Origin: an uncultured virus (IMG/VR IMGVR_UViG_2061766007_001805)
Lineage: Duplodnaviria; Heunggongvirae; Uroviricota; Caudoviricetes
DNA length: 62,391 bases
Direction: 5' to 3' (one strand)
IMG/VR virus record: IMGVR_UViG_2061766007_001805
Below the pieces are notes generated by a model. It was not told the origin of the DNA. It made no database searches and saw only the letters and a list, made by a program, of their open reading frames with translations. A program made the translations under genes and the position numbers. Shown here piece by piece: positions 3,871 to 61,812 of this stretch; the stretch's first letter is position 1, and the number at the start of each line of letters is the position of its first letter.

Positions 3871-4012
3871 TGGAGATGATATTTAAGAATCTGGAGATGA
3901 TAGTGAGAATGTGGTAGTCCAACAGTCCAACATCATCTCTTGAGTTTCATTTGATTAAATTGTTCTGCAGCAAAACAATAGGTTAATTTGGACTACCAGA
4001 TATCATCTGCAT

Positions 4013-4050
4013 AAAAAGAGAGCAACTATCGAGAAAGATAATTGCTCTTA
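4013..4050 (-). terminator. Intrinsic terminator AAAAAGAGCAACTATC-loop-GATAATTGCTCTT downstream of family genes (also ~5083, 6141, 8900, 15117, 17521, 19986)
   Basis: GC-containing stem followed by a U-run on the minus strand, just past TAA stops. Confidence 0.75.
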
Positions 4051-4057
4051 TTATATA

Positions 4058-4828
4058 TTAGTCCGGAAAACATTGATAAAGCTTTAACTGTAACTGTGTG
4101 TCATTATTCAGTTCATTGAATATCATAACTTTTGTTTTTTCAGGAAAGAAAAGAGAAATTATACTAACTACTATATTGTCCGGTACTATTGCATTTTTGT
4201 CTATCTTATATGAAGTGTATCTGTATGGATTATCTATATCCACATCTGAATGTTCTTCTGTTAATATATTGTTGATGTTATTAATCATTATATCGGTTAT
4301 ATAACTATTCTCATCTTTCCATAGATGTCTCATGATATTGCCTACAAATCTACATGCTGTTATATATGAATGTAGTTTGGGTAAATTAAAGAACAGCACC
4401 ATGTCGACTCTGCCGAATTCTCCACACGGAGATTGGATAAACTATTCTAATGAATTAGACCACCGTGTGATGAGTTTGTATTCATAGAAATCAATGAAAT
4501 TACATTCATTGTATTTGTCTTTAAGTAGCCACCATGCTGATTTTTCTACTACTGTTGGTTGTGAATACTCTATTCCGTACACATCAAACATATAAAGAAT
4601 GTTCTTGAATGTGTGTGGAATTTTAACAGTCCATATTTTACTCTATGTTAAACTATTATTACTGTCTACCTCAAAAATTATACAGTGTGTGTATCTGGAT
4701 GCCATTGCATCATAGTATTCAGCTGGTGTATCATAATATATGTCATCAGTGTTGAAATCACCAACTGAATTTCTCACATCCTCATCTGTCAGATCCAAGT
4801 CTTTGAAGTAGTCTTCTTTTAGTAGCAT
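4058..4828 (-). CDS. MILNE-family paralog, 256 aa (code 15)
   Basis: MLLKEDYF leader; frame open apart from 2 TAG; core YGIEYS..P / FFNLP / FFPEK / CFPD. Confidence 0.85.
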
Positions 4829-5119
4829 TAATATATAGAGATAATGTAGTTTCCTTATTTATTCTTGAGATGAGTCTGGACTATCAACCATATATTTAAA
4901 TACTGCGTTACAGGTTAAAAAACAGCAGTTTATTGCGGATATTTTGTTGGATTATATAAGATCTTTTATAGTTACTGTACCGGCAGTCCAACAGTCCAAC
5001 AACATCTCTTGGGTTTCATTTGATTAAGTTGTTCTGCAGCAAAACAACAGGTTAATTTGGAAATTCAACATCATAAAGAAAGAGAGCAACTATCGGGATA
5101 GATAATTGCTCTTGTACTA

Positions 5120-5887
5120 TTAATCATAGTCCGGAAAGCATTGATAAAGCTTTAACTGTAACTGTGTATCATTATTAAGTTCATTGAATATCATGTCATA
5201 TGTTTTTTCAGGAAAGAAAAGAGCAAGTAGTTCAAGTACTGTCTTGTCCGGTTCTATTGTTGTCTTGTTTATTCTATAAAACGAAGAAGGATTTGTCTAC
5301 GGATTATATAAATTAATTTCAACATATTGTCCTTTTAAATGTTTGATGACATCGAATATACTAAACCGATCTATAAATTTATTCTTCCATAAACACTTCA
5401 TAATATTACCGACGAACTTACATGCTGCTGTATATGACTATGTTTTTGGTAAATTAAAGAATATGATCATGTTGAGTAAGTTGCGTTTTTGGCACGGAGA
5501 TTTGGTAAACTCTTCTAATGAATCATACCGTGTGATGAGTTTGTATCCATAAAAATCAATGAATTTACAGTAGTTGAACTCATTTCTGAGACGGATTGTT
5601 GCTATGGGTTCTACTAATGTGAGTCGTGAATATTCTATTCCATATACATCAAACAACTAAGAAAGCTTCTTGTACATATGCGAGATTTCAACAGTCTTAT
5701 TGATAGTATGCATCGGAAAATCAGATATAGGTGTTGTAAAGATCAGACAGTGTGTAAATTTGGAGGTCATAGCATTATAGTAGTCAGCCGGTGTAGCATA
5801 ATCAATGTCATCAGCATCTGAATCTGAAGATGCTATATTGTCATCTGTTATTTCCAAGTCTTTGAAGTAGTCTTCTTTTAGTAGCAT
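5120..5887 (-). CDS. MILNE-family paralog, 255 aa (code 15)
   Basis: Fragments in one frame joined across TAGs; ends CFPDYD-TAA. Confidence 0.85.
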
Positions 5888-6177
5888 TGATATGAAGATA
5901 ATGTGATTTCCTTATTTATTCTTGAGGATGTGTTGAGGACTATCAACCACATATTTAAATACTGTGTTACAGGTTAAAAAACAGCAGTTTATTGCGGATA
6001 TTTTGTAGGATCATATTAGATCTTTGATAGTTGCTGTCCTGGTAGTTCAACAGTCCGGCATCATCTTTTGAATATACTTAATTAAATTGTTCTGCAGCAA
6101 AACAATTAGTTAGTCTGGAAATCCAACATCATAAAGAAAGAGAGCAACTATCAGGAGAGATAATTGCTCTTGTGCTA

Positions 6178-6951
6178 TTAATCAGGGAAGCATTTGTACA
6201 GTCTGGACAGCAGTTCACGATCACTGCTGAGTTCATCATATATTGTATCTTCATCCTTCTCCGGAAAGAACATACGGATGATTCCTGTTACTATATCATC
6301 AGGATGTACCAGGTCTTTATATACTGTATGTTTCACACCCCGGTAAGCATACGGATTGTACAAATGTAAGCCTTCATAGATTCTTCCCATAAGTGACCGA
6401 TCCTGTATGATTAACTTCTTCAAGTAACTATTATGGTTTCTGTTCTTCCACAGTTGTTTTACAATGTTGCCGATAAACCTGCATGCTGCTAAATATGTAT
6501 GGATTTTCGGTAGATTGAAGAACATCAGCATATTGATAGCACCGATTTTAATGTATGGGTTGTTGTCCTTGAGAGTAGTTAGTCCATTATACTTTGTAAT
6601 GAGTTTATATCCGTAGAAATCTATGAACTTGTACCGCTCATATCCTTCTGAGTGATGGATTTCCTGTACCATAGCAGTTGAATACCGGACTTCATACACA
6701 TCCAGTATATATTGTATATTCTTGAGCAAACGCGGAACATCATGATTCCATATCTTATCCTGTGTTAGAATGTCAGCATACTCAATATCGAAAGACATAC
6801 AGTGGGTGTATTCGGACTTCATGGAGTTAAACCACTCTTTCGGATTAGCATATGTCTTATCTGTGTCGGATATGTTGAAATCATCAATTGGATATTTCAG
6901 GTCATCATCAGTAATCTCTATGTCATCGAAGTAATTCTCTTTCAGTATCAT
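6178..6951 (-). CDS. MILNE-family paralog, 257 aa
   Basis: Intact ORF with family motifs and no internal TAG. Confidence 0.9.
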   Translation of the reverse strand: MILKENYFDDIEITDDDLKYPIDDFNISDTDKTYANPKEWFNSMKSEYTHCMSFDIEYADILTQDKIWNHDVPRLLKNIQYILDVYEVRYSTAMVQEIHHSEGYERYKFIDFYGYKLITKYNGLTTLKDNNPYIKIGAINMLMFFNLPKIHTYLAACRFIGNIVKQLWKNRNHNSYLKKLIIQDRSLMGRIYEGLHLYNPYAYRGVKHTVYKDLVHPDDIVTGIIRMFFPEKDEDTIYDELSSDRELLSRLYKCFPD

Positions 6952-7158
6952 TTAGTATGGATAATACAGTTTCCTTATTTATTCTTGGGAGATGAGTCGA
7001 TGTTCTCCGGACTGTCAATTAGCCTAACTGTGTTACCTGTTAAAAAATATGTAGTTTATTGCGGATATTTTGTATGATCATATAAGATCTTTAGTAGTTA
7101 CTGGACCGGCAGTCCAACATCATCTCCTGATAAATACATAAATTAAATTTCCATAATA

Positions 7159-7905
7159 ATGATACTGAACGAAGATTACTTCAATGACTTAGAGATAGAA
7201 GACAAAGATGTCATAGAAGATGTTGATGAACTCGACTATGAACTGACATTAGATGATGTTCAGAAGTTACCTGAACAATATAGTCATTTAATAAGATTTG
7301 AGATTGAGAATGCTGATGATAATAGGAATACAACATTTATTCAAACATCACTAATACCAAAATTATTCAAGAGACTTGATACCATATTCGAACTCTATGG
7401 TATTGAGCATTATGAATATGTACTTGCGTCAAGGCATGATGTGAAAATTTGTGAAACTGTAGTCAAATTCGGAGACTATCAGTTATTCTGCGAAGAAGAC
7501 AAGAAAGATAAATTTATAAACAACACATATGATTGTTTTTTCATCAATGTGTTTGTCAATTATCCTGAGTTTACTTATAAGAAAGCATTCCGTTTTCTAT
7601 ACACTATGCTTAATTTATATAAGAATAGTAAACTAATTAACCGGATGAGTTTTAATCTAAACACAACTAATGATTATTTTATAGAATTAGAATTTAGGAC
7701 TGAAAACAATCATATAAAATTTTATTAGTATAATACATATACATGTGGATATGACGCTATAATGTATTTATGTAATGAACTAACAGAAGAAAATAAGAGA
7801 GTATTCTACTTCTCTGTTTTCTATCATTTCTTCGGAGAAGGAGTAAGCGCACCATATAAGTTAATTGACAGGGATGTATCACTCAAACCCATTAGACCAA
7901 GATAA
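7159..7905 (+). CDS. MILNE-family paralog, subfamily B (LFKRLD..F/DRDVP), 248 aa (code 15)
   Basis: TAG at 7726 read through to the DRDVSLKPIRPR-TAA end shared with paralogs. Confidence 0.85.
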
Positions 7906-7998
7906 CATCTTGTTCTCCTGTAGAACAATAATAACTGCTGATGATAGTGGTAGTCCAACATCATTCCTGATAAATACATAAACTGAATTTCCATAATT

Positions 7999-8769
7999 AT
8001 GCTAATTAATGAAGATTATTTCAATGACTTAGAGATAGAAGACAAAGATGTCATAGAAGATGTTGATGAACTCGACCATGAACTGACAGTAGAAGAACTC
8101 CATAAGTTGCCTGAGCAATATAATCATAGCATAGCGATTGAAATAAAAAACCTTGATAAATGTAGAAGATGTACAACATTTTTCCAAACAACACTAATAC
8201 CGAAACTATTCAAGAGACTTGATGACATATTCGATATGTATGGTATTGAACATTCAGAGTATGTACTTACATCAGTTATGCAGAAATACTGTAACACTGT
8301 AGTCAAATTCGGAGATTATCAGTTATTTTGTGAAGAACATCTTAAAGACGAATTCATAAACGACACATATGAGTAGTTCTTCATTCAAGCGTTTGTCAAA
8401 TATCCGCAGTTTACTTATAAGAGAGCATTCCGTTTTATATACACATTAATTCCTAATCTATACAGAATGGACAGACATATCGGTTTTATGGGTTTTTATC
8501 CATCCGCTAATGATTATGCTACTACAACATTATATTTCTATTTTCAAAGGACACCAAATGATATAAGATTTGAATACTATGATGAAATAATTAAAAAAAT
8601 GGGACGTGGAATGTTTTTATGTGATGAAGATTATTTCACAAGTGAATATCTAAAGAAAGATTTCTACTATGCTGTTTTCCGTCATTTCTTCGGAGAGAAA
8701 GAAGTAAATAAGATAGATTATGAAGCAATTGATAGGGATGTACCACTCAAACCTATTAATCCAAGATAA
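7999..8769 (+). CDS. MILNE-family paralog, subfamily B, 256 aa (code 15)
   Basis: 7999-8376 and 8467-8769 in frame across a TAG. Confidence 0.85.
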
Positions 8770-8940
8770 CATCTTGTTCTCTTGTAGAACTATATAACCG
8801 CTGATGATAGTGGTAGTCCAACAGCATCTCTTGTGATGAAGATATTAAATTGTTCTGCAGCAAAACAATTAGTTAATTTGGAAATCCAACATATTAAAGA
8901 AAAAGAGCAACTATCGGGATAGATAATTGCTCTTGTGCTA

Positions 8941-9717
8941 TTAATCATAGTCCGGAAAGCATTGATAAAGTTTTAACAGTAACTATGTGTCATTATCAAG
9001 TTCATTGTATATCATACCATAAGATTTTTCAGGGAAAAAAAGAGAAATTGCACTAACTACTATACCATTGGGTACGATTGTACTTTTATCCATCTTATAT
9101 AAAGATGTCTTTGGATTACCTATGTCCACAACAGGATAATCTTCTGTTGATATATTGTTATTGTTATCAATCATTATATTGGATATATAACCTTTATGAT
9201 TCCCATCTTTCCACAGATGTCTCATGATATTACCGATGAACTTACATGCTGTTATGTATGAAGTTGCTTTTGGTAAATTAAAGAACATTACCATATCGAC
9301 ACTGCCAAGTTTTCCGCCCGGTGTTTGGATAAACTCTTCTAATGAATTACACCGTGTGATTAGTTTGTATCCATAGAAATCAATGAAGTTACAGTTGTTG
9401 AATTTGTCTTGAAATATCCAATATGCTGAACTTTCTACTACTGTTGGTTGTGAATACTCTATTCCGTATGCATCAAACATATAAAGAATGATCTTGAATG
9501 TGTGTGGAATTTTAACAGTCCAGTCATCACTCTATGTTAAACTATTATTACTGTCTACACTAAAAATTATACTGTGTGTAAATTTGGATGTCATAGCATT
9601 ATAATACTCAGCTGGTGTATCATAGTATATCTCATCAGAGTTGAAATCATCGACTGAAGATGCTATATCATCATCTGTTATTTCAATATCATCAAAGTAG
9701 TTTTCGTTCAGTATCAT
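8941..9717 (-). CDS. MILNE-family paralog, 258 aa (code 15)
   Basis: In-frame fragments joined across TAGs; close relative of 4058-4828. Confidence 0.85.
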
Positions 9718-9791
9718 CATCAGTGTATAATGTGGTTTCCTTATTTATTCTAACTTGCAATAGTAGGTAAAGTCCAATATCAGATTCTACC

Positions 9792-10571
9792 TTAATAGGC
9801 AACATAGTCATACAGTTTAGAGAGTAATTCTTCATTTTCCCGGAGTTCTTGTCTTATTTCCTCTGGAAATTTTTCCGGGAAGAAAGTGTTAATCAAATCA
9901 GTTAGTTTGTAATCCGGCGATGATGTTCTACGGATTGGCAATATATCTCTATACATTTGCACGCCGCATTGTTTCCGTTGCACGCCGCAATGTTCCTGTC
10001 TGCCATTAACCCATTCAAGTCTCCATATATAGAATTCGTTAATGTCCGCTTTATATTTTTTGTTTCCCCAGGGCCAGAGATATTTCTTAATACTGCCAGT
10101 AAATTTACATACGGTTTTATATGTATAGGTTTCCGGTAAATTGAAGAACATCACAAAATAAGCACCGATGTTTAAATTAATTGTCGTTTTTTCTAAAGAA
10201 TCGTGTAATGTGACTAACTTATAACTATAAAAATCAATAAAGTCATATGATTCATAGTTTGTTATAAAGCACTATTTAGGTTCTTCGTCTATTGTTTGAA
10301 TTATGGGTTTTGTGTATTCTGCTCCGTATAGATCGAATATGTCATAGATATGCTTGAATGTATTCGGTATTTCATGTTCCCATGTCTTAGACTCTGAAGA
10401 TATATCTCTCTTCTTAATGAAGAAGATCATGCTGTATGTGTATCTGGATTTTATATCCTAAAACCATTTCTCAGGATTATCACAGTTGTCATTAATAATG
10501 TGTTCGTCTGTGTCCGAAAAATCGTTATCAGTGAGTTCAAGGTCATTGAAATAATCTTCATTCAGTATCAT
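9792..10571 (-). CDS. MILNE-family paralog, ~259 aa (code 15)
   Basis: MILNEDYF start in frame with ORF 9792-10154; internal TAGs. Confidence 0.8.
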
Positions 10572-10777
10572 CATCAGTGTATAATGTGGTTTCCTTATTT
10601 ATTCTTGGGAGAATACTCAGTGATGTCTGGACTGTCAATTCACCCTAACTGCGTTACAGGTTAAAAACAGCAGTTTATTGCGGATATTTTGTATGATCAT
10701 ATAAGATCTTTGATAGTTGCTGAACCGGCAGTCCAACATCATCTCCTGATAAATACATAAACTAATTATCCGTACTG

Positions 10778-11527
10778 ATGATACTGAACGAAGATTACTT
10801 TGATGACTTGGAGATAAAGGATGAGGATATCATAGATGATGTTGAAGAACCAAAGCATGATCTGACAGTAGAAGAACTTCATAAGTTGCCTGAGCAATAT
10901 AATAATTTAATAAGATTTCGGATAGAAGTTGATGATAATGATAAGGATACAACATTTATTCAAACATCACTAATACCAAGATTATTCAAGAGACTTGATA
11001 CCATATTCGAACTCTATGGTATTGAACATTATGAATATATACTTGCGTCAAGGTATTATGTGTGTTATTGTGAAACTGTAGTCAAATTCGGAAACCATCA
11101 GTTATTCTGTGAAGAATACGAGAAATATAAATTTATAAATGGTAAATATGAATATTTCTTCATCCATGTGTATGTCAATTATCCTGAGTTTACTTATAAG
11201 AGAGCATTCCGTTTTCTATACACAGTGCTTAATCTATATAGAGATTGTAAACAAACTAATTAGATGATTTTTGAACCACTCACTGATGATTATGTTATAG
11301 AATTAGAATTTGGGACTGAATACAATCTTATAGAATTTTATTACTATAATAGAAAAATAGATGCAAGAGGAAATGTCATAAATTTAGGTAATGAACTAAC
11401 AGAAGAAGATAAGAGAGAATTCTACTACTCTGTTTTCTATCATTTCTCCAAACAAGGAGTAAGCGCGCCATTTAAGTTAATTGACAAGGATGTTCCGTTC
11501 AAACCTATTAGACCACTTGAATTCTAA
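10778..11527 (+). CDS. MILNE-family paralog, subfamily B, 249 aa (code 15)
   Basis: Two abutting in-frame ORFs separated by a single TAG. Confidence 0.85.
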
Positions 11528-11624
11528 TAATATATTGTTTCGCTGCAGAACAATATAACTGCTGTCGATAAGGTACTCCAACATCATTGTCTGCAATAAA
11601 TACATAAACTGAATTTCCATAATA

Positions 11625-12449
11625 ATGATNNNNNNNNNNNNNNNNNNNNNNNNNNNNNNNNNNNNNNNNNNNNNNNNNNNNNNNNNCTTGGAGATAACAG
11701 ATGATGATATTATAGTAGATAATCCGCTTGAGCAACCATATGATATAAATGCCGTTGATAAACATCTCACATCTTATTATGAACGCTGTCTATTATTAGC
11801 ATTGATATATGAAAAAGATATATATGCTTTAGATTCACATCCGCATATTATCAATTTGCTCAATAAAGTAAAACATTTCCTTGATGTTTACAACATAGAA
11901 TATGAATATGTATTCCGAGACAAATCAAAGGGAATTGGAAATCTGTACTTATATGATGTCGGCGACTTCAGTGTGATTTCATCATACTATCCAGAATCAT
12001 CGTTAAACTACAAAAGCAACAGATACTACAATGGTGTGACTATTGTCATATATATGAGGAAGATACCAAAGTTCACATATAAGGAATCATATCACTTCAT
12101 TCATAGATTATATAATACATTATGGAGATAGTATATGAATTATGATTCCATGAGAATCACAAAATATAAGAACTTATACACTTGGAATGAAATATGTGAT
12201 TTCATGAGAATCACAAATAAGCCGATTTCACTATATGGGGATATTCTGAATGATTCGTGGAAAGATACGTCAATAACATTAAGAGACCTTACAAATCGAC
12301 GAATAATATATAACTTGCCTTATAGGGATTATTTCAAAAAAGCATTACTGTGTTTCCATAACACAGACGAAGACATAATGATAATTGATGACATGTGTAG
12401 TAAACTCAAAAATGGTATTGACCCGTTCAAAAGCAGTAATGTGCATTGA
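11625..12449 (+). CDS. MILNE-family paralog, subfamily C (PY..FFKKA..DPF), spans an N gap
   Basis: In-frame fragments across a TAG; 5' part hidden by Ns. Confidence 0.75.
11630..11686. other. Assembly gap (N run)
   Basis: Run of n characters. Confidence 0.99.
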
Positions 12450-12509
12450 TAATAGCAGCACTCTAACATCATTGTCTGCAATAAATACATAAACTGAATT
12501 TCCATAATA

Positions 12510-13292
12510 ATGATACTGAACGAGGATTACTTCAAGGAACTTGACCTGACCGACGATGATGTGCATGTAAATGACACCCTTGGTGACGGATGTCCGGATT
12601 AGACAGATAATGTCAGGTCACTCTTCGAACATATGTTCTCCAGGTACTCGCACTGCATTGTCATTACCACCAATGAACTTGTCTATCCGTTTACTGACAC
12701 GAAACTGTGGATGACTATGATGCCGGCTCTGTTCAAGAGACTGAACTGTGTGTTGGAACTGTACGGAATACAGTATTCAGAGCCTGTCTTCATGTATGAG
12801 CATGACTGGAATGACCGTCTCTCGAACTATGACGACTGTGACAAATACAATATATACAATTATTACGGATACAAGATAATCAGCGAATATGATTCCGAAT
12901 ATGACTTTGAAGAGAGTATCCAGTATGATGAAGACGAACTGAAGATAATCATGTTCTTCGATATGCCTGAGTTCACATCACTCAGGAAAGCATACAGATT
13001 CATCTGCAATATAATCAGGAACGTATGGAAGTCCAAATACGAACAGGACATATATTGGTCAATATTTATATATAAGTCATAGGAAAAGAAATTCTATAAG
13101 AATGATATATACGATTGCATAACCGTATTCAGAAGGGAGATTAACGATATCATAGATATCAATAACTTGAAGCGCATACCTTTGTTGAACATACTCAAGT
13201 ATATGGCACCGACAGTCGGGCGCATAGTGTTTGACATGCCGTTTGACGAGTTGACTGATATTCTAAAGGGAAATAAAAAACAGCATCAGTAA
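12510..13292 (+). CDS. MILNE-family paralog, 260 aa (code 15)
   Basis: MILNEDYFKEL start; 2 TAG; TAA at 13290. Confidence 0.85.
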
Positions 13293-14006
13293 CAAGGTGC
13301 TGTTCTTTTTGTTGGATAATATGCAGTTTTACTGAAGAACAATGACAGATGATACCAGCACTCCAATATCATTCTTTTCAGATATTAATCAAATAGAAAA
13401 ACAGATACTAATCAGATACTACGGATACTGCTGGACTTCCAATATCAATCATCTGAACATTTCCCTGAACATTACCCTATTCATTACCCTGAACATTACC
13501 CTAAAGTATTTCCGAGATAAACTTCATTTTTCATACCTGTTTCTCATTTTCAAGATCTTTACGTCTTTATACACTTTTGAACATCCGGCTTCAACTAAAC
13601 AGATACTGCTGATGATAGTGGCAGTCCAACATCATCTCTTGTGATGAAGATATTAAATTGTTCTGTAGCAAAACAATAAGTTAGTTTGGACTGTCAAACA
13701 TCATTCTGCCAAGGTCTTGGGTAATATTCGGGTCGTATGCGGGTAATATTCGGGTCAGATTTGTTTTTTTATGGGTTTTAATAGAATATTTGAATATTAT
13801 GGACGATATTTGAATATTGTCGGATATTTAAATATCTTGGGAAATATTTGAATATTGCCAGATATATGAATATCGGATTTAGATATTTCCGGAGATGACA
13901 TTTCATTATAATTATATGAAAAAGACTGAAGATGAACAGTAGTTGGGCAATAGTATTGGTAGTCCAACAGTCCAACTTCTGCTTACAGCACAAGCAGTTT
14001 GTTGTT

Positions 14007-14903: not shown

Positions 14904-15157
14904 TATTGTTATTAATAGACTACAAAAGTATATAGATTATTTTACAAAAACAAAAATTCAGGAAATCATTATAGATTTTTAACAATATGATGAATATGTT
15001 CTGCAGCAAAACAATTAGTTAGTTTGGATTTCCAACATCATCTCTTGGGTTTCATTTAATTAAGTTGTTTTGCTGCAGAACAATTAGTTATTTCGGATTG
15101 TCAAACATCATTCATAAAAAAGAGCAACTATCAGGAGAGATAATTGCTCTTGTTGTA

Positions 15158-48129: not shown

Positions 48130-48400
48130 CTGTATATGGATAAATCGGTTTCATTATTTATTCTTCTGGAATATGAAAAGCAGTAATCTGCCATAACTGT
48201 GTGACAGGTTAAAAAACAGCAGTTTATTGCGGATTGGAAAAGAAGCCGGTTTGGTAGTCCAGTAGTCCGGCAGTCCGGTAGTCCGGTGCTTCAACCACAT
48301 CTCTTGATAGTGTTCCGATGATATTGTTCTGTAGTGAAACAAGTGGTTAGAGAATCTCTGACCTGAGAATAAATAAGGAAACCATAATATCTATATACAG

Positions 48401-51966: not shown

Positions 51967-52591
51967 GCTGGCACTACCATAAGTCACGTACTAATGCTTC
52001 CTTCCGTAGATAAGGATACTTAAGGAAATCGGTTACATCTGCTATATAGAACCCCCAGTTCGTAAGGTTATAATGTTTTTTTATCAATTCGAGATTAGAA
52101 ATATTCAAGTCGGTGTTCCTGTTAATCTTAGCTATCTGTTGGGCGATGTTGCTGATGAATCTACAAGCAAAACTATATGAATGGGCTGTCGGGAGATTGA
52201 GAAATATCACCATTCTCAGATTGTTACTGATTTCATTCAAATCCCTATACTTCGTTATCAACTTATAACCATACAGGTCAAATAAATTACAAGATTTGTA
52301 TCTTTCTTTAATACATATATACGAATGTGTCTGCAGAGTAGGCTATGAGTATTCTATTCCGTATACATTGAATATGTATTGAAGTCTCTTGACGATATGT
52401 GATATTCTATCTACCGAGTGCTTGTCTTTTATTTTAACATCAAAACCCAAACAATGACTGTACTTTGACTGCATGTCTATGTACCATTCTTCCGGACTGT
52501 TATACTCATTACCGACAATGTCGTCATCATGAGTTATAATGTCGTCATCGGTCAGTTTCAAATCATCAAAGTAGTCTTCGTTCAATCTCAT
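51962..52591 (-). CDS. MILNE-family paralog, 209 aa (code 15); stop codon lies inside the last CRISPR repeat
   Basis: TAGs at 52343 and 51974; TAA at 51962-51964. Confidence 0.8.
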
Positions 52592-52998
52592 CTGTATATG
52601 GATAAAGTATTTTCATTATTTATTCTTCAGTAGGATGATGCCCGGTAATTTACCATAACTGCGTTAGCTGCTATAAAAACAGCAGTTTATTATGGAAGAC
52701 AAAAAAACGGTCCGGCACTTCAACTACATCTCTTGATAGTGATTTGATGATATTGTTCTATAACAAAACGATTGAATTGTCAGTTAAATAAACTTAAATA
52801 ATTGTGCAATGTTATTGTATTGTGGTTTATTATTCATACCTTTGTAGCATCAAAAGCAATGAACCTCAGTCTCTACATAATTGCTGAATTCAGATAAGAT
52901 AATGAAACTGAATGAGTTAATTAAAAATGTGGAAAATCAGCAGGTAAAAGTTGCTGAAGATGATGTGCTGTTATTCAATTATATAGTGATATATTGGA

Positions 52999-53767
52999 GT
53001 CTATACAGTGTCATTCATTTCTACTAATGTAGATCGGGATTGTCGCCCCATACACGTGATGTAGTCTATACAGTGTCATTCATTTCTACTAATGTAGATA
53101 TTGATGAAATAATAATACAGATTCATGTCTATACAGTGTCATTCATTTCTACTAATGTAGATTGAGAATTCTTAATGAGTTTGCCCTCAAGTCTATACAG
53201 TGTCATTCATTTCTACTAATGTAGATGGTTTGTTAATTATGTCTATACAGTGTCATTATTTCTACTTTATGTAGATACAACGGAATAATCCTTAATGTGA
53301 ATTGTTAAGACAGTGTTATTATTTCTACTTAATACCTACTTCCGTAGGTTGTAGATACCTATTCATCTCCATGTACGTTATTTAGTCAAGACAGTATAAT
53401 TATTTCTACTAATGTAGATGAATTGAATAGTCTATTGATACGTCTATGCAGTATAATTATTTCTACTTAATGCCTACTTCCGTAGGTATGTAGATACAAC
53501 GGAATAATCCATAATGTGAATTGTTAAGACAGTGTTATTATTTCTACTTAATACTTACTTATGTATGTTGTAGATAAGCATCACCTTGAAATCGTGTCTA
53601 TACAGTATCATTATTTCTACTTCATGTAGATGCGGTTATGATAGTCAAATGATGACATTGTCTATACAGTATCATTATTTCTACTTAATGCCTACATCCG
53701 TAGGTTGTAGATTGGTACCACAAAACGCTCATGACACATGTATATACAGTATCATTATTTCCACTTA
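52999..53767 (+). CRISPR. CRISPR array 2, 12 repeats / 11 spacers
   Basis: Repeat GTCTATACAGTGTCATTCATTTCTACTAATGTAGAT and variants, 4 of them long-loop. Confidence 0.92.
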
Positions 53768-54517
53768 TTGCTCAATTCCATAAGTAGTTCTCTGATTCTT
53801 TGCAAATAGACATCCGAGTACACAATCTCTATCGTGCTCATTCAACACTTGCTTGTAGAAACTGTTATAGTCATTGAATGATTTAGCATCACTGCCGTAC
53901 ACATTTATCTCTTCTTCATATGTACTGTAATAATAACCGCCGTCTATGGAAAAGAGGTTTACAAGGAAATCATCACGTTTGAAGATAGTCTTTGTTAGAT
54001 AGTAAAGAAATTTCATTCCCTGCTGTATTGTATTGAAATCAGGCATATTGAAATGCATATAAAGTACATACCAGCGTGATTCATATTCCCCATTAGTTCT
54101 CTTGATTTGAGTATCTTTACATGCAAGGTGTATGTATCCGTAGTCATATATGTTGTAATTCGGTATGGAATGACCATCTATTTCAACCGTGTTGTCATAA
54201 TCTTCTTCATACGTGTCTATCAAGAATAGTTCGGAGTGTTCTATTCCGTATGTGTCGAACAGATTGTATAGCATAGTCTATATCTTCTTTACAGTGACCG
54301 GATTTATATCATGGCTTAACGCTTCACGATTTGAAATTTTGAAATCAATACACAATCTGTCAGTGTAATGTTTCTCACAGTACAGAATATATTCATATCC
54401 GGACTGGAAGTTTTTATGTGATTTAATAAACATATCTTCACCAACAGTGCTGTCTGAAGACGTAATGTCGTCATCAGTCAATTTCAAATCATTAAAGTAG
54501 TCTTCTTTTAATATCAT
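53765..54517 (-). CDS. MILNE-family paralog, 250 aa (code 15); stop codon inside the last repeat
   Basis: One TAG at 54278. Confidence 0.85.
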
Positions 54518-54893
54518 CTGTATATAGATAAAGTGGTTTCATTATTTATTCTCTCTGTATGATGTCCGGTAATTTTCCGTAACTACGCTTCAGGTTAAAA
54601 AACAGCAGTTTATTGTGGAAACATAAAAGAAGCCAGTCCGGTAATTTGGCTACATATATTCTGTAATGAAACAATTGGCTTGTCAGTTAAATAAACTTAA
54701 AATATTATCCAATAATATTATATTGTGATTTTATATTTGTACCTTTGTAACAGCAATAGCAACAAACATCAGTCTATATACATCGGCTGATTAAGCCTAA
54801 GATACTGGGACTGACACAGTTAAGTGTAGAATAATGGAACTGGTGAATAAAAGTTGCTGAATCGAATGTGCTGTTATTCAGTTACTTAGCAGT

Positions 54894-55230
54894 ATTCTGA
54901 CAGTATCATTATTTCTACTTAAATGCCTACTTCCGTAGGTATGTAGATTAAATCTCTGTCTTTTTGCAGAATCTTCTGTCAAGACAGTATCATAATTTCT
55001 ACTTAAATGCTTACATTCGTAGGTCGTAGATACTTACTCGTCGCCATGCACGTCATTTAGTCAAGACAGTATAATTATTTCTACTTAATGTAGATCTTTG
55101 GGCGAACTCATCAAGAAAGCCTTTGTCAAGACCGTATCATTATTTCTACTTAATGTAGATAACAACGTTTAATAAAAACTTCAGTCAAGACAGTATCATT
55201 ATTTCTACTTAATGCCTACTTCCGTAGGTC
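54894..55230 (+). CRISPR. CRISPR mini-array 3, 5 repeats / 4 spacers
   Basis: GTCAAGACAGTATCATTATTTCTACTTAATGTAGAT variants, 3 of them long-loop. Confidence 0.88.
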
Positions 55231-55997: not shown

Positions 55998-56072
55998 CTG
56001 TATATGGATAAAGTAGTTTCATTATTTATTCTTCAGTAAGATGATGTCAGGTACTTCAACTGCATCTCCCTA

Positions 56073-56182
56073 TACCATATTTCCGGATTAGTGCATTCGA
56101 CAGCAGTAGTCTGGTTGTCTGATGAAGACTCAATGCTATCGTCAGTGATTTTATTATCAAATAGGTATTCGTTCAATAACAT
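56073..56182 (-). pseudogene. Degraded 5' fragment of a family gene (copy of the start of 55275-55997)
   Basis: MLLNEYLFDNKITDD-like start with the conserved upstream motif, then breaks off. Confidence 0.7.
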
Positions 56183-56520
56183 CTGTATATGAATAAAATA
56201 TTTTCATTATTTATTTTTCGGTAATATGATATCAGGTACTTCAACCGTATCTCTTGATAGTGAATCGGTGATATTGTTCTGTAATAAAACAATTGGCTTT
56301 AAGAGTTAAATAAACTTAAATACTTGTGTGATGTTATTGCATTGTGGTTTTATATTTGTACTTTTGTATCAGCAAAAGCATCAAGCCTTAGCATCTACAC
56401 AATTGCTTGAGTATGTTTAATATATTAAGACTGAAAGAGTTAATTGGAAATGTGGAAAACTGGTGAGTAAAAGTTGCTGAATAGAGTGTACTGTTATTCA
56501 GTTACTTAGCAGTATTCTGA

Positions 56521-56848
56521 GTCAATATAGTATAATTATTTCTACTTTATGTAAATCGAGAATCCGTTCCAACCACTACGGCGAGTCAAAATAGTATAAT
56601 TATTTCTACTTAATACCTACCTCCATAAGTGTAGGTCGTAGATAGGTCCTCAATGCACTTGTGGTCAGTAATGTCTATACAGTGTTATTATTTCTACTTC
56701 ATGTAGATTATCGATGATAATCATCTTCTATAAGTCTATACAGTATAATTATTTCTACTTAATGCCTACATCCGTAGGTTAGGTATGTAGATGAAAGGTG
56801 ATTGGTGAAGCATATGTACTGTCTATACAATATCATTATTCTTACTTA
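56521..56848 (+). CRISPR. CRISPR mini-array 4, 5 repeats / 4 spacers
   Basis: Same handle; 2 long-loop variants. Confidence 0.85.
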
Positions 56849-57451
56849 AAAGTCTTCTTCAGTAAGATCCACTCTCATTGAATATACTCCGACTGTTTGA
56901 ATTTCCTGAGTTGCATATGACTCAAACTGGTAAACTGGTTCAGTTTCGGAATCAGCACCCATAATGTATGTCACAAGACCTTCAGTGAAATAACTGTCAT
57001 CCGACTTGCTATCACGTAATGCGGATAGTGCGAGAGATGCACTGTGTGGCGGGAAATCTCCAGGGAATACACATCCGAAGAACGGACTATCCGTAACATC
57101 AACTGTTATATCACTGAGACTTGAGTCAGAGAACCAGACGAACAGTGTAGGTGCATTCATATATCCTTCACCGTCATGCTGAAGGATTGTGTACACACCG
57201 TGACACTCTTTTCCGTGTTCTTTGTCTATCAGGACAGATACAGTGCCGTCTTCTTCAGAGTCCTGCTTTACGTACCAGCCTTGAAACTCATACAGCAATA
57301 CAAGTTGTCCCGGATAATTGTCATTTGCCCAGCGACGTACCATGACATTCATTTTGTAAAGCAGGTCATTGAAATCAGCAGTGACCGGTGTGTCATAGTG
57401 CAGTTCAGGTTCATTGTCTGTGCCTAATACAAGATGATTGTTAGCTTCCAT
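56846..57451 (-). CDS. Hypothetical acidic protein, 201 aa (MEANNH...), unrelated to the family; stop codon inside the last repeat of array 4
   Basis: ATG at 57451 after an A-rich leader; the extra 48 aa in the ORF track come from the MITE and UTR. Confidence 0.75.
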   Translation of the reverse strand: MEANNHLVLGTDNEPELHYDTPVTADFNDLLYKMNVMVRRWANDNYPGQLVLLYEFQGWYVKQDSEEDGTVSVLIDKEHGKECHGVYTILQHDGEGYMNAPTLFVWFSDSSLSDITVDVTDSPFFGCVFPGDFPPHSASLALSALRDSKSDDSYFTEGLVTYIMGADSETEPVYQFESYATQEIQTVGVYSMRVDLTEEDF

Positions 57452-57502
57452 TGTGTATAGTATTTTATTTTTGATGTGAATTGATGTAATTGTAAAAAGT
57501 AT

Positions 57503-57715
57503 GGTAATGATATACATGTTGGCACAAAGCCTTGTATATCTTACTGCTTCATATGGTTGCCCTCCACAGTCTTTATCCCACTTACCTATGGGCATTTGAT
57601 ATATGTTTATTTATGAGCGAAGTTACAAAAAAATTCTGAAACCAACAAACATTTTCATAATAAATTATTAATCTAATTATTATGACTAAATTGTGCCAAC
57701 ATATATATTGTTACC
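57503..57715 (-). mobile_element. 213-bp MITE of the TIR-TnpB element (promoter plus putative omegaRNA region, tnpB deleted)
   Basis: TIRs GGTAATGATATACATGTTGGCACA / TGTGCCAACATATATATTGTTACC; 8-bp duplication AAAAGTAT at 57495-57502 and 57716-57723; interior matches 24218-24250 and 25385-25491. Confidence 0.88.
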
Positions 57716-57793
57716 AAAAGTATAACAACATGCTGTTGCTCTTGTCATAGTTCTGCTCTGAAATTTATATCTTGAAGCATTTGTTCTGGCATA

Positions 57794-58561: not shown

Positions 58562-58758
58562 TTGTATATGGATAAAGTAGTTTCATTATTTATTCTTTCT
58601 GACTATGATATCCGCCATAACTACGTTACATGTTAAAAAATCTACAGTTTATCACGGATGAAAAAAGCCGGTTTGTTAGTCCGACACTTGATTGGTTCAA
58701 TGATATTGTTCTGTAGTTGCTCTTGTCAGAGTTCTGCTCTGGAGTTTGTACAGTTTGA

Positions 58759-59499
58759 TTACTTTCTGAAGCATCTGAATACCACATCGGTCAAGTTCTC
58801 TTTGCTGTCAAGTAATTCCTGACGTATTGTTTCCGAATATTTTTCAGGATAAAATATATTGATTAAATTGATTACTTCATTAGGGATATTTTGATAGTTT
58901 ATAAAATTCTGTTCCAAAGTGTTGAAGCCATGTATTATCATTTTAGGAGTATCGTCAATACTATGAATGCAGAAAGCAGGCACGAATACTTTGTAATCAT
59001 CATTAGCCAATATCGGTTTTATTATATTGCCTGTGAACTGACATATTTCCTTATATGAGCGGACTTTCGGTAAATTGAAAAACACCACTATATATAAATA
59101 GAAGCGATGTTTGAATTCTTCCAATGACTTTCTGTACGTAATCAATTTATAGTCATAAAAATCAATGAAATTGCATGGTCTGTAATTATCGTCACAATAT
59201 GTACAGTCTTGTATTGTGGGTTGAGAATAGTCTATATCATATACATCCAATACATATTTAAGATTCTTGAGCAGATGTGGGGCTTTGGATTTCCAAATAT
59301 AATCATTATGTATGATATCGATATCACTCCCTTCTATCCTGATGCGGAGAAAGTGTCCGTACCTGCTCTTTATATCGTTGAACCATTCTTCCGTACTTGC
59401 ATATTCGACAGTATCAGTGTATGAAGAATCAATGTCCGGAGAAGTGATATCATCATCAGTAATCTCTATCTTGTCAAAGTAATCTTCGTTTAATAGCAT
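58759..59499 (-). CDS. MILNE-family paralog, 246 aa
   Basis: Intact ORF. Confidence 0.9.
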   Translation of the reverse strand: MLLNEDYFDKIEITDDDITSPDIDSSYTDTVEYASTEEWFNDIKSRYGHFLRIRIEGSDIDIIHNDYIWKSKAPHLLKNLKYVLDVYDIDYSQPTIQDCTYCDDNYRPCNFIDFYDYKLITYRKSLEEFKHRFYLYIVVFFNLPKVRSYKEICQFTGNIIKPILANDDYKVFVPAFCIHSIDDTPKMIIHGFNTLEQNFINYQNIPNEVINLINIFYPEKYSETIRQELLDSKENLTDVVFRCFRK

Positions 59500-59727
59500 T
59501 TGTATATGAATAAAGTATTTTCCTTATTTATTATTGAAAATGTCATATGGTAGTCTAACTGTGTTATCTTGAGTATTATCATATAGTTGTTTTGTTACAG
59601 AACAACCGGTAATATACTCAGCAGATGATGAAGCGTCGGTCTGCTTATGATGTTTGGACTGCCGGACATCATATTACTGGAAAAATGAGTAAAATGCCTA
59701 TTTCCATAAGTCAAGTACTTCCGTAGG

Positions 59728-60465
59728 TCAAGCACCATATATGCTCTATATTACCTGATTGAATTTTTTTGACAATGCTTCTCTTATCGCAAATGGATTA
59801 TGATTCGTAAAAAACATATGAATTAATTCAACCAATTCATTGATTGACATTGTAAGTTGGGGATGCTGATATGTATTGTAAATAATTGCAGAATCAAGGT
59901 ATTTGTCATATTTTTCTGTAAAAAGACATACGTTCAAGTCATTGTAATATTCTCCAAAGAACTCATTCTTCCATAGTTGCTTAGTGATATTGTGGATGAA
60001 CAGGCATGCTGCATTATATGTTTTCAACTTTGGCAAATTAACGAAGTACACTATCTTTATATAAGTGGTTGCAAGATTATACTTACTGAGTTCCGGTATT
60101 GTTTTATACTCTGTAATCACTTTATATTGGTGGAAATCGATGAAATTACAAGATTTGTATTTGTCAAGTATATACCAGGCCGGAGCGTCTTGAATAGTCG
60201 GTTCTGAATAATCCATTCCGTATGTGTCTAAAATGTATTGGAATCTCTTGATAAGCTGCTATATTTGTTGGCTCCATAATCTGTCATCAGTTAGGATTGG
60301 GATGTCTTTCTTCTTTATGTTTATCGACAGGAAACAGTTGTACTTAGTCTATATATTTTTGAACCAGTCTTCCGGACTTGCATACTCGGCAGTATCACTG
60401 TCCGAAGAAGTGATGTCATCATCAGTAATCTCTATCTTGTCAAAGTAGTCTTCGTTTAATAGCAT
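59728..60465 (-). CDS. MILNE-family paralog, 245 aa (code 15)
   Basis: MLLNEDYF start in frame; 3 TAG. Confidence 0.8.
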
Positions 60466-60688
60466 TTGTTGTGTGGCAATACAGTTTCATTATTTATTCT
60501 CTGAGTAGATGCCCGATAATCTTCCATAACTGCATGACAGGTTAAAAAACAGCCGTTTATCACGGATATTCTGATGATCATAAAAAGACCACAACTGGCG
60601 TGCGGAGAGCCGGTATCATCTCCTGTCAGACTATGCTTGTAGTATCTTTAGTGTCATCTAAAAGAAGCAATGTCAATGTCAATCAAGT

Positions 60689-61585
60689 TCAGGTTTTGGG
60701 GAATGGTTTTTCATTCAATGATATGCTAAACACCCTACACTGAGTTATGTATTCCTTAGCATCATCATTGTTCCATGTAATATGATGCTTTTTTAGCTAT
60801 TCTGCCGGATAAATGCATTCGAACAGTGCAGGCAGTATGGTAAAGACATGTGTGTTTAGTTTTTCGAAGAATTCTTTTCTCACCATTGTTTTTTCCGGAA
60901 AGAATAACTGGACTATCTTGAGTATCATCTTGATTCTCTCTCTGGTCACAAGCAAATCGGTTCTTTTCAGAGAATCAGGGTTCGGCAGGAACACTCCCCA
61001 GTATTTCTGGTTTGATGACTTTATCTGTTTGAGATTCCATATATGGAAGCAGTAGTCTTCAGAGTTGCTGTTGTTGTTCCATATGGTTTTAACGATTCTG
61101 CCTACAAACTTGCATTCCGATACATATGAGCGAATATCCGGCAAGTTCAGGAATATGATGATGTCGATTTCATAGTACAGTCCGCGCTTACATTCTTCCA
61201 TAGAATCATACTATGTAATCAGCTTGTATCCGTGGTAGTCGAAGAATTTGCACGATCTGAACTTAAACAGCAAGTTATCTTGGGTTTCGTCGATACTGCA
61301 CATCAGCACCGGCTCCGAGTATTCCATCCCGTATGTGTCGAACATATACTGGAGTTTCTTAATCATCTGCGGTATGCCGTGGATGCCCGGTGGTTCATTA
61401 AAGTCCTGAGTTTTGAAAAAATGCTCGATACATATGCAGGTACTATACTTGGACTGCATATCCGCATACATCTGCTCCGGACTGGAATATTCATTGTCAG
61501 ATAAAGCTGTATAGATATTATCGGATGTCTGAATGTCATCATCAGTCAGTTTCAAATCATCAAAGTAGTCTTCTTTTAATAACAT
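60689..61585 (-). CDS. MILNE-family paralog, ~298 aa (code 15)
   Basis: TAGs at 61211 and 60797; TGA at 60689. Confidence 0.8.
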
Positions 61586-61812
61586 CTGCATATGGATAAA
61601 GTAGTTTAATTATTTATTCTATAATGAAACAATGTATGAATCTATTGGATTACCATTGTGTATAGTTCCGTATGTTTGCAATCCGGACTGCCGGATAATC
61701 CAGTAACTACCTTTCAGGTTAAAAAACTGCAGTTTATCACGGAAGAATGAAATACCATAGAGTATCTGATTGGTATCTGTTCAGTATCTCTTCAGTATCT
61801 GAGTGGTTAGAA

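Follow-up and report, generated by a model that had tools for sequence, protein, structure and literature searches.

Arrays of small genes separated by recurrent DNA elements have been described in several genetic systems. In integron arrays, such as the chromosomal super-integrons, attC sites separate promoterless, unrelated cassettes which depend on a common promoter. Large DNA viruses carry multigene families in their terminal regions, while in the host-takeover module of SPO1 every small gene carries a promoter and a terminator of its own. In addition, phages such as the Lak megaphages and the crAss-like phages have recoded TAG to glutamine (code 15). In T4-type phages, composite promoter-terminator cassettes called PeSLs (promoter-early stem-loop), located in hyperplastic regions, have been reported to mediate gene shuffling (PMC2839356, PMC4122927).

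Here, we analyzed one stretch of 62,391 nucleotides (IMGVR_UViG_2061766007_001805; hereafter "the window"), in which a gene array fills ~58 kb. The reading which we hold to be rather probable is that of a hyperplastic, phage-like region using TAG as a sense codon, whose boundary motifs are the co-duplicated control modules of a tandem array of ~47 diverged paralogues of one ~250-residue protein. This locus is reminiscent of PeSLs in having short, putatively promoter-plus-terminator motifs repeated dozens of times among small genes of a plastic region, the T4-type motifs being homologous exchange points which give unrelated genes the same flanks. It differs in that its genes are nearly all paralogues of one family, its repeat is longer and multipartite (motifs A, B, C and D, a terminator and a leader), and the region upstream of the family genes departs from the host-type promoter consensus. 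The promoter and terminator roles, as well as exchange between genomes at the motifs and mini-circles, are putative here.

A family of paralogues readable with TAG as a sense codon

In the initial annotation, some of the genes flanked by the motifs were described as unrelated. Most flanked genes are neither unrelated nor broken: once TAG is read as sense, the apparent "fragments" become 47 intact paralogues of 230-300 residues from a single family, which represent 47 of the 52 array ORFs according to TAG-sense ORFs, alignment and a tblastn map.

4058-61591, mostly minus strand: array of 47 paralogues
25490-25717, 29876-30202 and 56036-56203: three truncated family remnants

The family has the consensus N-terminus MILNEDYFDDLEITDDDI and matches no Pfam or PHROG entry. 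Its 47 ORFs (~11700 codons) contain 64 in-frame TAG codons, with at least one in 37 of them, and every reading reaches TAA or TGA at 230-300 residues, without frame shift or read-through of TAA or TGA. The family hence displays what identifies recoding, namely in-frame TAG, and no other stop, in intact and conserved genes. TAG is absent from five further genes (~1700 codons together), which encode a NERD protein, a methyltransferase, TnpB and the products of ORFs 41360 and 56846. Three standard-code ORFs located at 945-3731 are also linked in one frame by TAG.

447-3767, plus strand: 1106-residue TAG-joined reading of these three ORFs, with HNH-like and NUMOD-like endonuclease domains

Its first part (447-944) contains repeated copies of motifs B and C and may be non-coding.

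Like code-15 phages, the window combines in-frame TAG in otherwise intact genes with a gut or rumen source and hints of a Bacteroidota host. Unlike them, it has no suppressor tRNA, nor indeed any tRNA within its limits, and comparison at the DNA and protein levels gave no match to any of 50,697 phage records, among which are those of Lak phages. The window is also devoid of virion or other hallmark phage genes, which counts against a phage nature; we read it as part of a probable rumen phage-like element with a putative Bacteroidota host. Some 47 copies of one family are unusual in such an element. As in viral multigene families and the SPO1 module, many small tandem genes appear individually controlled within a variable region, and expansion driven by duplication would suit an arms-race function, but these systems are unrelated in sequence to the array family.

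An ordered series of boundary motifs

Motif matches were counted under a mismatch limit specific to each motif and compared with the expectation from shuffled sequences. Motif A (21-mer, at most three mismatches) has 18 matches, all on the plus strand (0.00 expected), and motif D (17-mer, at most two mismatches) has 19, also on the plus strand only (0.00 expected). Palindrome C has 48 matches, both strands counted (0.01 expected), and motif B (12-mer, at most one mismatch) has 37, of which 31 are on the plus and six on the minus strand (0.73 expected). All four are thus far above chance and the plus-strand order A, B, C, D, followed by a hairpin T, is recurrent, so that the boundary series noticed initially is real. 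The constant plus-strand polarity noted for the series holds for A (18/18) and D (19/19). Of the A copies, 17 of 18 are found at a distance of 49-125 nt ahead of the ATG of a family gene, or of its truncated remnant, on the minus strand; the polarity of A therefore reflects the mostly minus-strand orientation of the family. Minus-strand B copies are found at 38319, 39160, 40023, 43075 and 43999, in agreement with the reversed motif noted at ~38300-44900; B flips together with the genes of one subfamily (L2), which explains this block.

An ACATCAT box, present as B or D, also forms two perfect palindromes.

661-684 and 850-873: perfect 24-bp palindromes, each composed of two boxes

Each contains two half-sites, suggesting that the box could be the half-site of a palindromic protein-binding site. 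More generally, the motifs likely are functional conserved sites and probably bound by protein, as had been proposed. Within the block at 27.9-38.3 kb, the conservation of spacer motifs (0.48-0.62) does not exceed that of coding sequence (0.55-0.75); selection on these motifs is clearer across distant units than inside the block.

Together, B, C and D form an imperfect composite palindrome of ~75-85 nt, with arms GGYAGTCC and GGACTRCC surrounding palindrome C. A small mobile palindromic element of the REP/BIME, Correia or MITE type, spread independently of the genes, would have such terminal inverted 8-mers. It would also account for the tandem runs in which the 8-mer occurs and for copies in unrelated contexts, including four to five box-plus-C units within 360-1050 and a doubled C-B-C-B at 14996-15111, upstream of the NERD gene. 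However, B-C-D is fixed in place and orientation within the unit and diverges with it, its parts also stand separately in functional positions (C and B at a fixed distance from the L2 ATG), and no transposase acting on it is present in the window, which makes such an origin unlikely.

The composite palindrome also recalls the attC sites of integrons. Six single-stranded DNA folds from three elements gave z-scores of -2.3 to -3.5 in four cases and of only -1.1 and -1.3 in the two others, the longer stretches including a terminator hairpin. As in integrons, single-gene units follow one another in the same direction over a long array, with a repeated and partly palindromic element between them, B-C-D being located between nearly all genes in one orientation; several rearrangement end points fall on B, C or D, as a site-specific model predicts, and cassette content varies between sequencing runs. 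A recombinase encoded outside the window could then move single-gene cassettes by an attC-like B-C-D. Against this, inspection of the element ends revealed no RYYYAAC or GTTRRRY core, and the arms do not covary (complementarity of 6.40 out of 8 within elements versus 6.47 between elements; permutation p 0.84). Pfam scans of 15 + 33 window ORFs revealed neither an integrase nor any other recombinase family, the 33 having been picked by eye, mostly for length or location in long spacers, from 96 extragenic or unexplained ORFs of at least 50 codons; these 33 also contain no SatD family, of which a fragment had been annotated. Furthermore, the cassettes are not promoterless but bring their own upstream regions and, in many cases, terminators, the 47 ORFs are duplicated paralogues rather than captured unrelated genes, with flanks which track the gene tree, and both the strain difference and the promoter swap described below break outside B-C-D. 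The integron-like capture of unrelated genes advanced in the initial annotation is therefore very unlikely.

Organization of the repeat unit

The layout was compared over 27 spacers between minus-strand genes and over the upstream regions of all genes. In gene direction, a unit starts with a stop codon and, except in some units, a hairpin terminator; D', palindrome C, B', A', a conserved leader and the ATG come next. Units are 0.9-1.05 kb long and duplicated in tandem, the motif series being their conserved non-coding part.

26781-27177, plus strand: complete example spacer between two minus-strand genes, with L1 leader 26799-26814, A 26850-26870, B 26923-26934, C 26959-26977, D 26990-27006 and a T2 terminator hairpin matched from 27024
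4829-5119, plus strand: example spacer of the T1 type, with A 4913-4933, B 4994-5005, C 5029-5047 and a degenerate D
5083-5112: T1 hairpin; a T-run comes after it on the minus strand
7910-7998, plus strand: L2-type upstream region, with C 7910-7928, B 7953-7964 and 34 nt to the ATG at 7999
Ahead of minus-strand genes 38276, 39121, 39989, 43046, 43956 and 44827: reversed L2 layout

All units share a conserved upstream region with a leader, the motifs lie ahead of the ORFs, and stem-loops with T-runs behind them are present in the array. Within a unit, conservation is highest over the leader and first codons (pairwise identity 0.84-0.91), the conserved leader itself measuring 38 nt and being preceded by a variable spacer. 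All 34 matches of the L1 leader are in sense ahead of its gene. A sense-oriented box is exact in only nine of the L1-leader genes, which, with the variable distance between A and the ATG, leaves the core L1 promoter imprecisely placed. Of the 11 L2-type genes, 10 have a B box at 28-42 nt ahead of the ATG, whichever strand they are on, and C plus an ACATCAT box is also found upstream of the plus-strand gene 18651. Hairpin terminators were identified in 12 units (seven T1 and five T2), and the T2 module is common to unrelated genes, the methyltransferase included.

The block at 27.9-38.3 kb has no T1 or T2 hairpin, and D' is located there 1-52 nt after the stop codon. This would suit a role at the RNA level, D'-C-B' folding in the minus-strand transcript as a terminator, stabilizer or processing site between cistrons, and the minus-strand folds of the element (z -2.3 to -3.3) point in the same direction. 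The arms, however, lack covariation, no U-run follows the element, the same boxes stand in the opposite sense ahead of L2 genes and sRNA units, and the two-box palindromes suit a double-stranded DNA site, so that we regard this role as quite improbable.

From the sequence, we infer promoter, operator and terminator activities as follows. In the favored reading of co-duplicated control modules, A' and the leader would act, for the main subfamily L1, as an upstream and 5'UTR signal proper to the element. Palindrome C with one ACATCAT box (B or D) would be a second promoter or operator module facing the opposite way and the true upstream region of the L2 subfamily and of gene 18651; the same module also stands ahead of the sRNA units and, with a leader replacing D, of the CRISPR arrays. 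In many of the spacers that separate minus-strand genes, B and D are directed at the neighboring gene's 3' end; only short or antisense RNA would arise from a promoter located there, which counts against a promoter function.

Foreign genes within the array

A NERD gene, a methyltransferase gene, a TnpB element, sRNA units and four CRISPR arrays occupy the same slots as the family genes. The protein-coding foreign occupants are TAG-free, and most of these slots have host-type (Bacteroidota) promoters.

14007-14903, minus strand: NERD nuclease-related gene with a topoisomerase-type zinc ribbon, TAG-free; Bacteroidota-type promoter at 14923-14954, unique DNA at 13906-14984
21168-22772, minus strand: C-5 cytosine DNA methyltransferase gene, TAG-free; unique DNA at 21156-22835
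24078-25491, plus strand: IS605-type element with TnpB only (24270-25385) and a host-type promoter at 24220-24251
56846-57720, minus strand: foreign TAG-free ORF; unique DNA at 56865-57502

The motif series reported around foreign genes is partly present but incomplete: the NERD gene lacks A, and the methyltransferase gene is preceded by C and D and followed by a terminator module. Unique DNA of the latter starts 12 nt beyond the stop codon, and its 3' flank is the T2 module found in four other cassettes. The IS605-type element, whose left bound is approximate, cuts a family gene short at its right end (25491). While the reported lack of a recombinase stands for the scanned ORFs, the window does contain this element's TnpB gene. 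The first ~30 codons of ORF 56846, along with its promoter, stem from a mini copy of this element that lacks TnpB and has the left-end promoter joined to the right end.

Duplication, mosaic units and breakpoints

Whole tandem units, gene plus spacer, are 70-76% identical (70-78% in the block at 27.9-38.3 kb), and larger segments have also been duplicated.

27899-38306, minus strand: block of ~12 tandem units of ~0.82-1.24 kb each, most of 0.84-0.98 kb
7113-8827, plus strand: two-gene segment, inverted at 40033-38319 (75.8% identity over 1761 nt)

Genes and flanks were co-duplicated. On the protein tree, leader type changes four times versus 9.9 times in shuffles, none of the 500 shuffles being as low; flank types mostly track the gene tree, and the seven T1-flanked genes cluster at its base. 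A few mosaics depart from this rule. Gene 37560 belongs to the L1 clade and carries an L2 upstream region, the switch being located inside 38224-38295 (leader and first 17 codons), and gene 40227 is the reverse mosaic.

Some rearrangements do end at motifs. Both ends of the inverted duplication fall exactly on B copies, in three cases a distance of 8-12 nt separates D or C from the start of unique DNA, and a contig from another run diverges 1 nt past D at 13705. Foreign DNA had been noted near an ACATCAT box at 19519, and unique DNA indeed starts 8 nt after the D copy ending at 19522. By contrast, the promoter swap and the one strain difference have no breakpoint in B-C-D. The latter, which the strain comparison proposed initially did reveal, is supported in run X4 by one 2161-nt contig joining 25491 to 27169, the intervening 1.68 kb being absent there; it is bounded by the end of the insertion element and the end of a terminator module. 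The comparison contigs are short and none spans more than ~2 cassettes, so that the reliability of the cassette order depends on how well the window itself was assembled.

Conserved modules show some visible re-assortment, as with the T4-type PeSL cassettes. The array probably expanded through duplication, both tandem and segmental, as well as through inversion, its conserved stretches (boxes, terminator modules, leader and first ~17 codons) providing the substrate for ordinary homologous recombination. The latter would occasionally re-assort promoters, ORFs and terminators and leave foreign genes in standard slots, with further rearrangements contributed by the IS605-type element.

sRNA-like units, CRISPR arrays and short repeats

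The remaining occupants of the slots are sRNA-like units and CRISPR arrays.

16142-16704, plus strand: three tandem sRNA-like units, each with a D box, a Bacteroidota-type promoter and a hairpin terminator
Near 41104-41245 and 61814-62000: related single sRNA-like units
50452-51975, plus strand: CRISPR array 1, with Cas12a-like repeats
52998-53789, 54893-55229 and 56520-56830: CRISPR arrays 2-4

Each CRISPR array is preceded by a ~230-nt leader, itself located after B-like and C-like motifs, and no cas gene is present in the window. Bacteroidota promoters follow the consensus TTTG-N17-21-TAnnTTTG. Nine such sites occur in the window versus 2.4 expected. Eight of them precede the NERD gene, TnpB, gene 41360 and five sRNA units; canonical family genes have no such site ahead of them. 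This distribution suggests two expression classes, the family genes on one side and the TAG-free or sRNA occupants with host-type promoters on the other.

A bolder reading, to which we give little credence, is that of a new kind of phage-borne cassette platform. A slot bounded by ACATCAT boxes and B-C-D, served by an unseen recombinase or nuclease encoded elsewhere, would load and reshuffle family variants, defence-type genes (NERD and methyltransferase), sRNAs and entire CRISPR arrays. If so, the family would consist of rapidly diversifying host-takeover or anti-defence proteins, and TAG recoding would gate their expression but not that of the TAG-free captured genes.

Short repeats form three further clusters.

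3766-3855: cluster of ~5 copies of GATATTTGAATAT, ~19 nt apart
13785-13873: similar cluster of the GATATTTGAATAT type, 3' of the NERD gene
22835-22885: similar cluster, 63 nt upstream of the methyltransferase ATG

Recoding and a Family of Uncharacterized Proteins

Under the standard genetic code, the window appears as a mixture of ORFs of ~250 aa and fragments. Translation of three 'broken' copies gave one continuous frame each, in which the only interruptions were stop codons, all of them TAG in the DNA. When TAG is read as sense, 47 ORFs of 230–300 aa fill positions 4058–61591, without any frame shift being required and all terminating at TAA or TGA. These paralogues contain 64 in-frame TAG, with at least one in 37 of the 47 ORFs; about 7 of the 64 coincide with the natural C-terminus or fall close to it, and could serve as stops. 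Three ORFs at 945–3731 also share one frame, joined through TAG. At the TAG columns, Glu, Gln and Lys are enriched in the paralogues, a count which is partly circular and which does not fix the residue encoded. Our conclusion is that TAG is a sense codon for this element, as it is in recoded gut phages. Standard-code gene callers stop at TAG in 37 of the 47 genes and truncate them, and such regions thus stay invisible.

Directly after the ORF 3096–3731, positions 3732–3743 read TAG TAG ATA TAG (three TAG within four codons), which looks like a reinforced stop in an otherwise TAG-reading element. TAG is also found at the 3' ends of four family genes (33966, 37593, 46464 and 47395), exactly at the paralogue ends; it may still terminate in some contexts, or these four proteins may bear short read-through tails.

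In alignment, the ORFs form a single family whose consensus N-terminus is MILNEDYFDDLEITDDDI. This alignment (A1) has 47 rows, namely 46 of the 47 family ORFs and the unrelated ORF 56846, ORF 11625 being excluded because it contains an N run (57 N at 11630–11686, within the 5' end of family gene 11625–12449). The family has no match in Pfam or PHROG. An AlphaFold model built on A1 was confident (pLDDT 88.8, pTM 0.87), and Foldseek searches of PDB and BFVD with this model gave no match at E ≤0.001. The best VIA-align matches (Z 6.6), small ribosomal-protein-like alpha/beta sandwiches, were dismissed as non-specific, since this Z falls in the range of common arrangements, and ESM Atlas scores (≤0.79) provide leads only.

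When 1.84 billion representatives were searched with a profile of the family, at least 208 clusters were retrieved at E ≤0.001 (142 at 1e-10), many of them fragments, a cluster being a representative at 50% identity from public metagenomes. The 10 clusters examined all derive from ENA/Logan metagenome contigs, mostly of 1–10 kb, and none is named. Neither the family protein nor its alignment found a relative in IMG/VR or in GTDB species genomes, nor did tblastn and blastn searches against INPHARED, whose 50,697 phage records include Lak phages. The runs containing 13001–23000, from 14 studies, are labeled as bovine gut or as unspecified gut or other metagenomes, and none of the listed runs is recorded as RNA. 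Despite its clusters in public metagenomes, the family is without a name, a Pfam or PHROG family or a recognizable fold. A tandem family of ~47 copies across 58 kb is unusual in a phage-like element and recalls those multigene families that large eukaryotic viruses carry.

Anatomy of the Repeat Unit

Four boundary motifs (A, B, the palindrome C, and D) recur in the spacer DNA, as the initial annotation had claimed, and the counts of A, B and C far exceed shuffle expectation. Motif A (a 21-mer, ≤3 mismatches) occurs 18 times, on the + strand only (expectation 0.00), and B 37 times (31 on +, 6 on −) versus 0.73 expected. The palindrome C has 48 matches, both strands counted, versus 0.01 expected, and D has 19, on the + strand only. 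Along the combined map, the + strand order A, B, C, D, then the T1 hairpin (12-bp stem), is repeated. Motif A has no match in IMG/VR, and 14 JGI metagenome loci with motif A were set aside as chance, none of the 14 carrying the family and two carrying one other motif match.

The layout of the unit was derived from 27 spacers between minus-strand gene pairs, aligned in the direction of transcription, and from a listing of the 150 nt upstream of each gene. In gene direction (primes denoting the minus-strand reading), a stop codon is followed by a hairpin with a T-run, D' (ATGATGTCTGGCAGTCC), the palindrome C, B', A' (ATAAACTGCTGTTTTTTAACC), a variable spacer and the leader GAATAAATAATGAAAC-N-TTTATCCATATACAG, which precedes the ATG. 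Two hairpin types were distinguished, T1 (7 complete copies) and T2 (5 copies), neither of which is found in the block at 27.9–38.3 kb. All 34 leader motifs are sense-oriented and precede a family gene or a truncated remnant, and the leader with the first ten codons is the best-conserved part of the unit (pairwise identity 0.84–0.91). In L2, the second of two subfamilies (L1, L2), the upstream region differs: the palindrome C is followed by ~25 nt, a B box, 28–42 nt and the ATG, in an orientation which follows the gene.

Motif polarity had been described as constantly + even for + strand genes. All 18 A copies do lie on the + strand, which merely reflects gene orientation, because 17 of them precede, by 49–125 nt, the ATG of a minus-strand family gene or a truncated remnant. 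The reversed block reported for motif B was recovered, with 5 of the 6 minus-strand copies at 38319–44010; because the L2 upstream region flips with its gene, B is in sense before the + strand genes 7159–12510 and reversed at 38.3–44.9 kb.

The core CCRRACATCAT (17 exact matches on both strands versus 0.21 expected) is common to B, to D and to a sense copy ~40 nt before some L1 genes. Two facing boxes make up the perfect 24-bp palindromes at 661–684 and 850–873, and near-palindromes of two boxes occur at 46357 and 59647. Such an arrangement has the form of a dimeric-protein binding site. A role mainly at the RNA level, which we consider quite unlikely, can be weighed on the B-C-D segment, an imperfect palindrome in which the arms GGYAGTCC and GGACTRCC flank C. 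Across 15 elements, arm complementarity within an element (6.40 of 8) does not exceed that between elements (6.47; permutation p 0.84), and a hairpin maintained by base-pairing is therefore unsupported.

The palindrome C was also considered as a parS-like centromere or iteron, an idea dropped given its ~47 copies at a fixed promoter-proximal position. Immediately upstream of a B box, the 8-mer of the arms (GGTAGTCC) also occurs in tandem at 18460–18520, 47290–47330 and 48253–48287, repeated every 8 bp as many as 6 times.

Two Putative Classes of Expression Signals

Several genes and non-coding units unrelated to the family lie within the array or next to it.

Non-family features of the window
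13906–14984, unique DNA with the NERD gene; its end falls 12 nt short of a C copy
21156–22835, unique DNA with the methyltransferase gene; begins 12 nt beyond the stop codon of this gene
24078–25491, + strand, TnpB element (IS605-type)
19530–19955, unique non-coding stretch of 426 nt; begins 8 nt after D at 19522
44926–45297, unique non-coding stretch of 372 nt; begins 10 nt after C at 44916
16142–16704, ~41104–41245 and 61814–62000, sRNA-like units of ~165 nt with a D box, a Bacteroidota-type promoter and a strong hairpin terminator
50452–51975, 52998–53789, 54893–55229 and 56520–56830, four CRISPR arrays, ~45 repeats
3766–3855, 13785–13873 and 22835–22885, clusters of GATATTTGAATAT, ~5 copies at ~19 nt spacing

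The pattern TTTG-N17-21-TAnnTTTG, the consensus of Bacteroidota-type promoters, occurs 9 times in the window versus 2.4 expected. Eight of these sites precede NERD, TnpB, gene 41360 and five sRNA-like units, and the ninth lies inside gene 45534; across the whole window, no canonical family gene is preceded by one. TAG is absent from the ~1700 codons of the non-family genes NERD, methyltransferase, TnpB, 41360 and 56846, as against 64 in ~11700 codons of the family. We infer from these patterns two putative classes, one a host-polymerase class compatible with the standard code, the other element-specific and including the signals A, box, C and leader.

Array Growth, Possible Exchange and Comparison With Known Systems

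Self-comparison of the window revealed ~12 tandem units at 27.9–38.3 kb, 70–78% identical over gene and spacer, and duplicated divergent pairs (6907–8001 versus 10527–11627, 81.9%). In a maximum-likelihood tree of 47 proteins, leader type changes 4 times versus 9.9 in shuffles (none of 500 shuffles being as low) and the seven T1-flanked genes cluster at the base; the flanks therefore mostly move together with the genes. Self-comparison also showed an inverted two-gene duplication (7113–8827 versus 40033–38319, 75.8%), both ends of which fall exactly at B copies. That the repeats constitute a mobile palindromic element is an unlikely alternative.

Mosaic genes also occur. Gene 37560 belongs to the L1 clade and carries an L2 upstream region, its two homologies overlapping at 38224–38295, which corresponds to the leader and the first 17 codons; gene 40227 is the opposite mosaic. 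The T2 module is found 3' of unrelated genes, the methyltransferase among them. These three cases are consistent with homologous exchange at any conserved stretch.

The initial annotation had proposed comparing cassette order between strains, and Logan contigs of four runs were compared over 9001–29000. Contigs of X1, which is probably the source sample, match perfectly, interrupted at the repeated motifs; most of their 'joints' were rejected as rearrangements, having short sides (20–35 nt) on repeated motifs, and are probably cross-matches from other cassettes of the same array. In X4, a single 2161-nt contig fuses 24055–25491 to 27169–27918, and the missing 1.68 kb comprises a gene fragment, A, D, gene 26088 and a complete A-B-C-D series. 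Both break points, one at the insertion-element end and one where a T2 module ends, lie outside B-C-D. One X6 contig departs 1 nt past D at 13705, and the remaining loose ends fall within genes. Cassette content thus differs between strains, while the contigs are too fragmentary to give a rule or to confirm the cassette order of the window. Short-read assemblies are broken at every conserved spacer, so that relatives are represented by contigs of roughly one cassette.

Collectively, we regard as probable that the array is a tandem family whose members carry regulatory cassettes. The motifs had been interpreted as recombination or protein-binding sites driving integron-like gene capture. What is retained from this proposal is that the motifs are conserved modules, probably protein-binding or regulatory, which would also serve as recombination substrates; a site-specific cassette system of the integron type is very improbable. 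Integrons have a recombinase, attC cores and signal-less cassettes with unrelated genes. Here, no recombinase was found among the scanned ORFs and no attC cores were seen by inspection, the B-C-D arms lack covariation, and the cassettes are paralogous and bear their own signals.

The nearest described system is that of the promoter-early stem-loop (PeSL) cassettes of T4-type phages. PeSLs are described as repeated promoter and stem-loop motifs of hyperplastic regions, which mediate modular shuffling and are able to form mini-circles (PMC2839356, PMC4122927). In contrast to PeSLs, the repeat is multipartite here, the putative family promoter departs from the host type, a single family has undergone massive expansion, and activity and exchange are putative. 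The passages searched of a preprint on the crAss-like virion RNA polymerase yielded no promoter motif for comparison. Should the modules be what their sequence suggests, the region would be a Bacteroidota-phage counterpart of PeSL-driven modular evolution, and host-type and element-specific expression classes would parallel TAG use.

Inserts, CRISPR Arrays and Non-Coding Units

The two unique non-coding stretches (19530–19955 and 44926–45297) have no Pfam match in any ORF, and they are possible additional genes for non-coding RNA. At gathering thresholds, Rfam gave no match in the window, sRNA-like units included, and ARAGORN found no tRNA gene in it. The GATATTTGAATAT clusters adjoin three non-family genes (an HNH-like ORF, NERD and the methyltransferase); matches number 29 window-wide versus 10.9 expected, and a role as operator or iteron-like sites is possible.

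The four CRISPR arrays and the sRNA units are placed after B-like and C-like motifs, in the position of a + strand gene. The repeats are Cas12a-like, ending ...ATTTCTACT-loop-TGTAGAT, and alternate between a 36-nt form and a form of 47–55 nt whose loop contains an extra hairpin (…AATGCCTACTTCCGTAGGT…). No cas gene lies within the window. Spacers are ~26–29 nt long, with a nearly duplicated pair at 53277 and 53496. A search of the window with 25 spacers gave no target, and one searched against IMG/VR had no match. In GTDB genomes, the repeat pattern gave one match, within a coding region, which was discarded as chance. CRISPR arrays carried as cassettes between genes link the region to mobile-element conflicts.

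The end of the TnpB element at 25491 truncates a family gene; the fragment 25492–26093 matches 20561–21155 at 85.6%. A TnpB-less mini copy gives the foreign ORF 56846–57595 its promoter and first ~30 codons. In this mini copy (~57500–57720, − strand), a left-end promoter is fused to the right end of an IS605-type element, and its right end and that of the 24078–25491 element both finish ...GTTACC.
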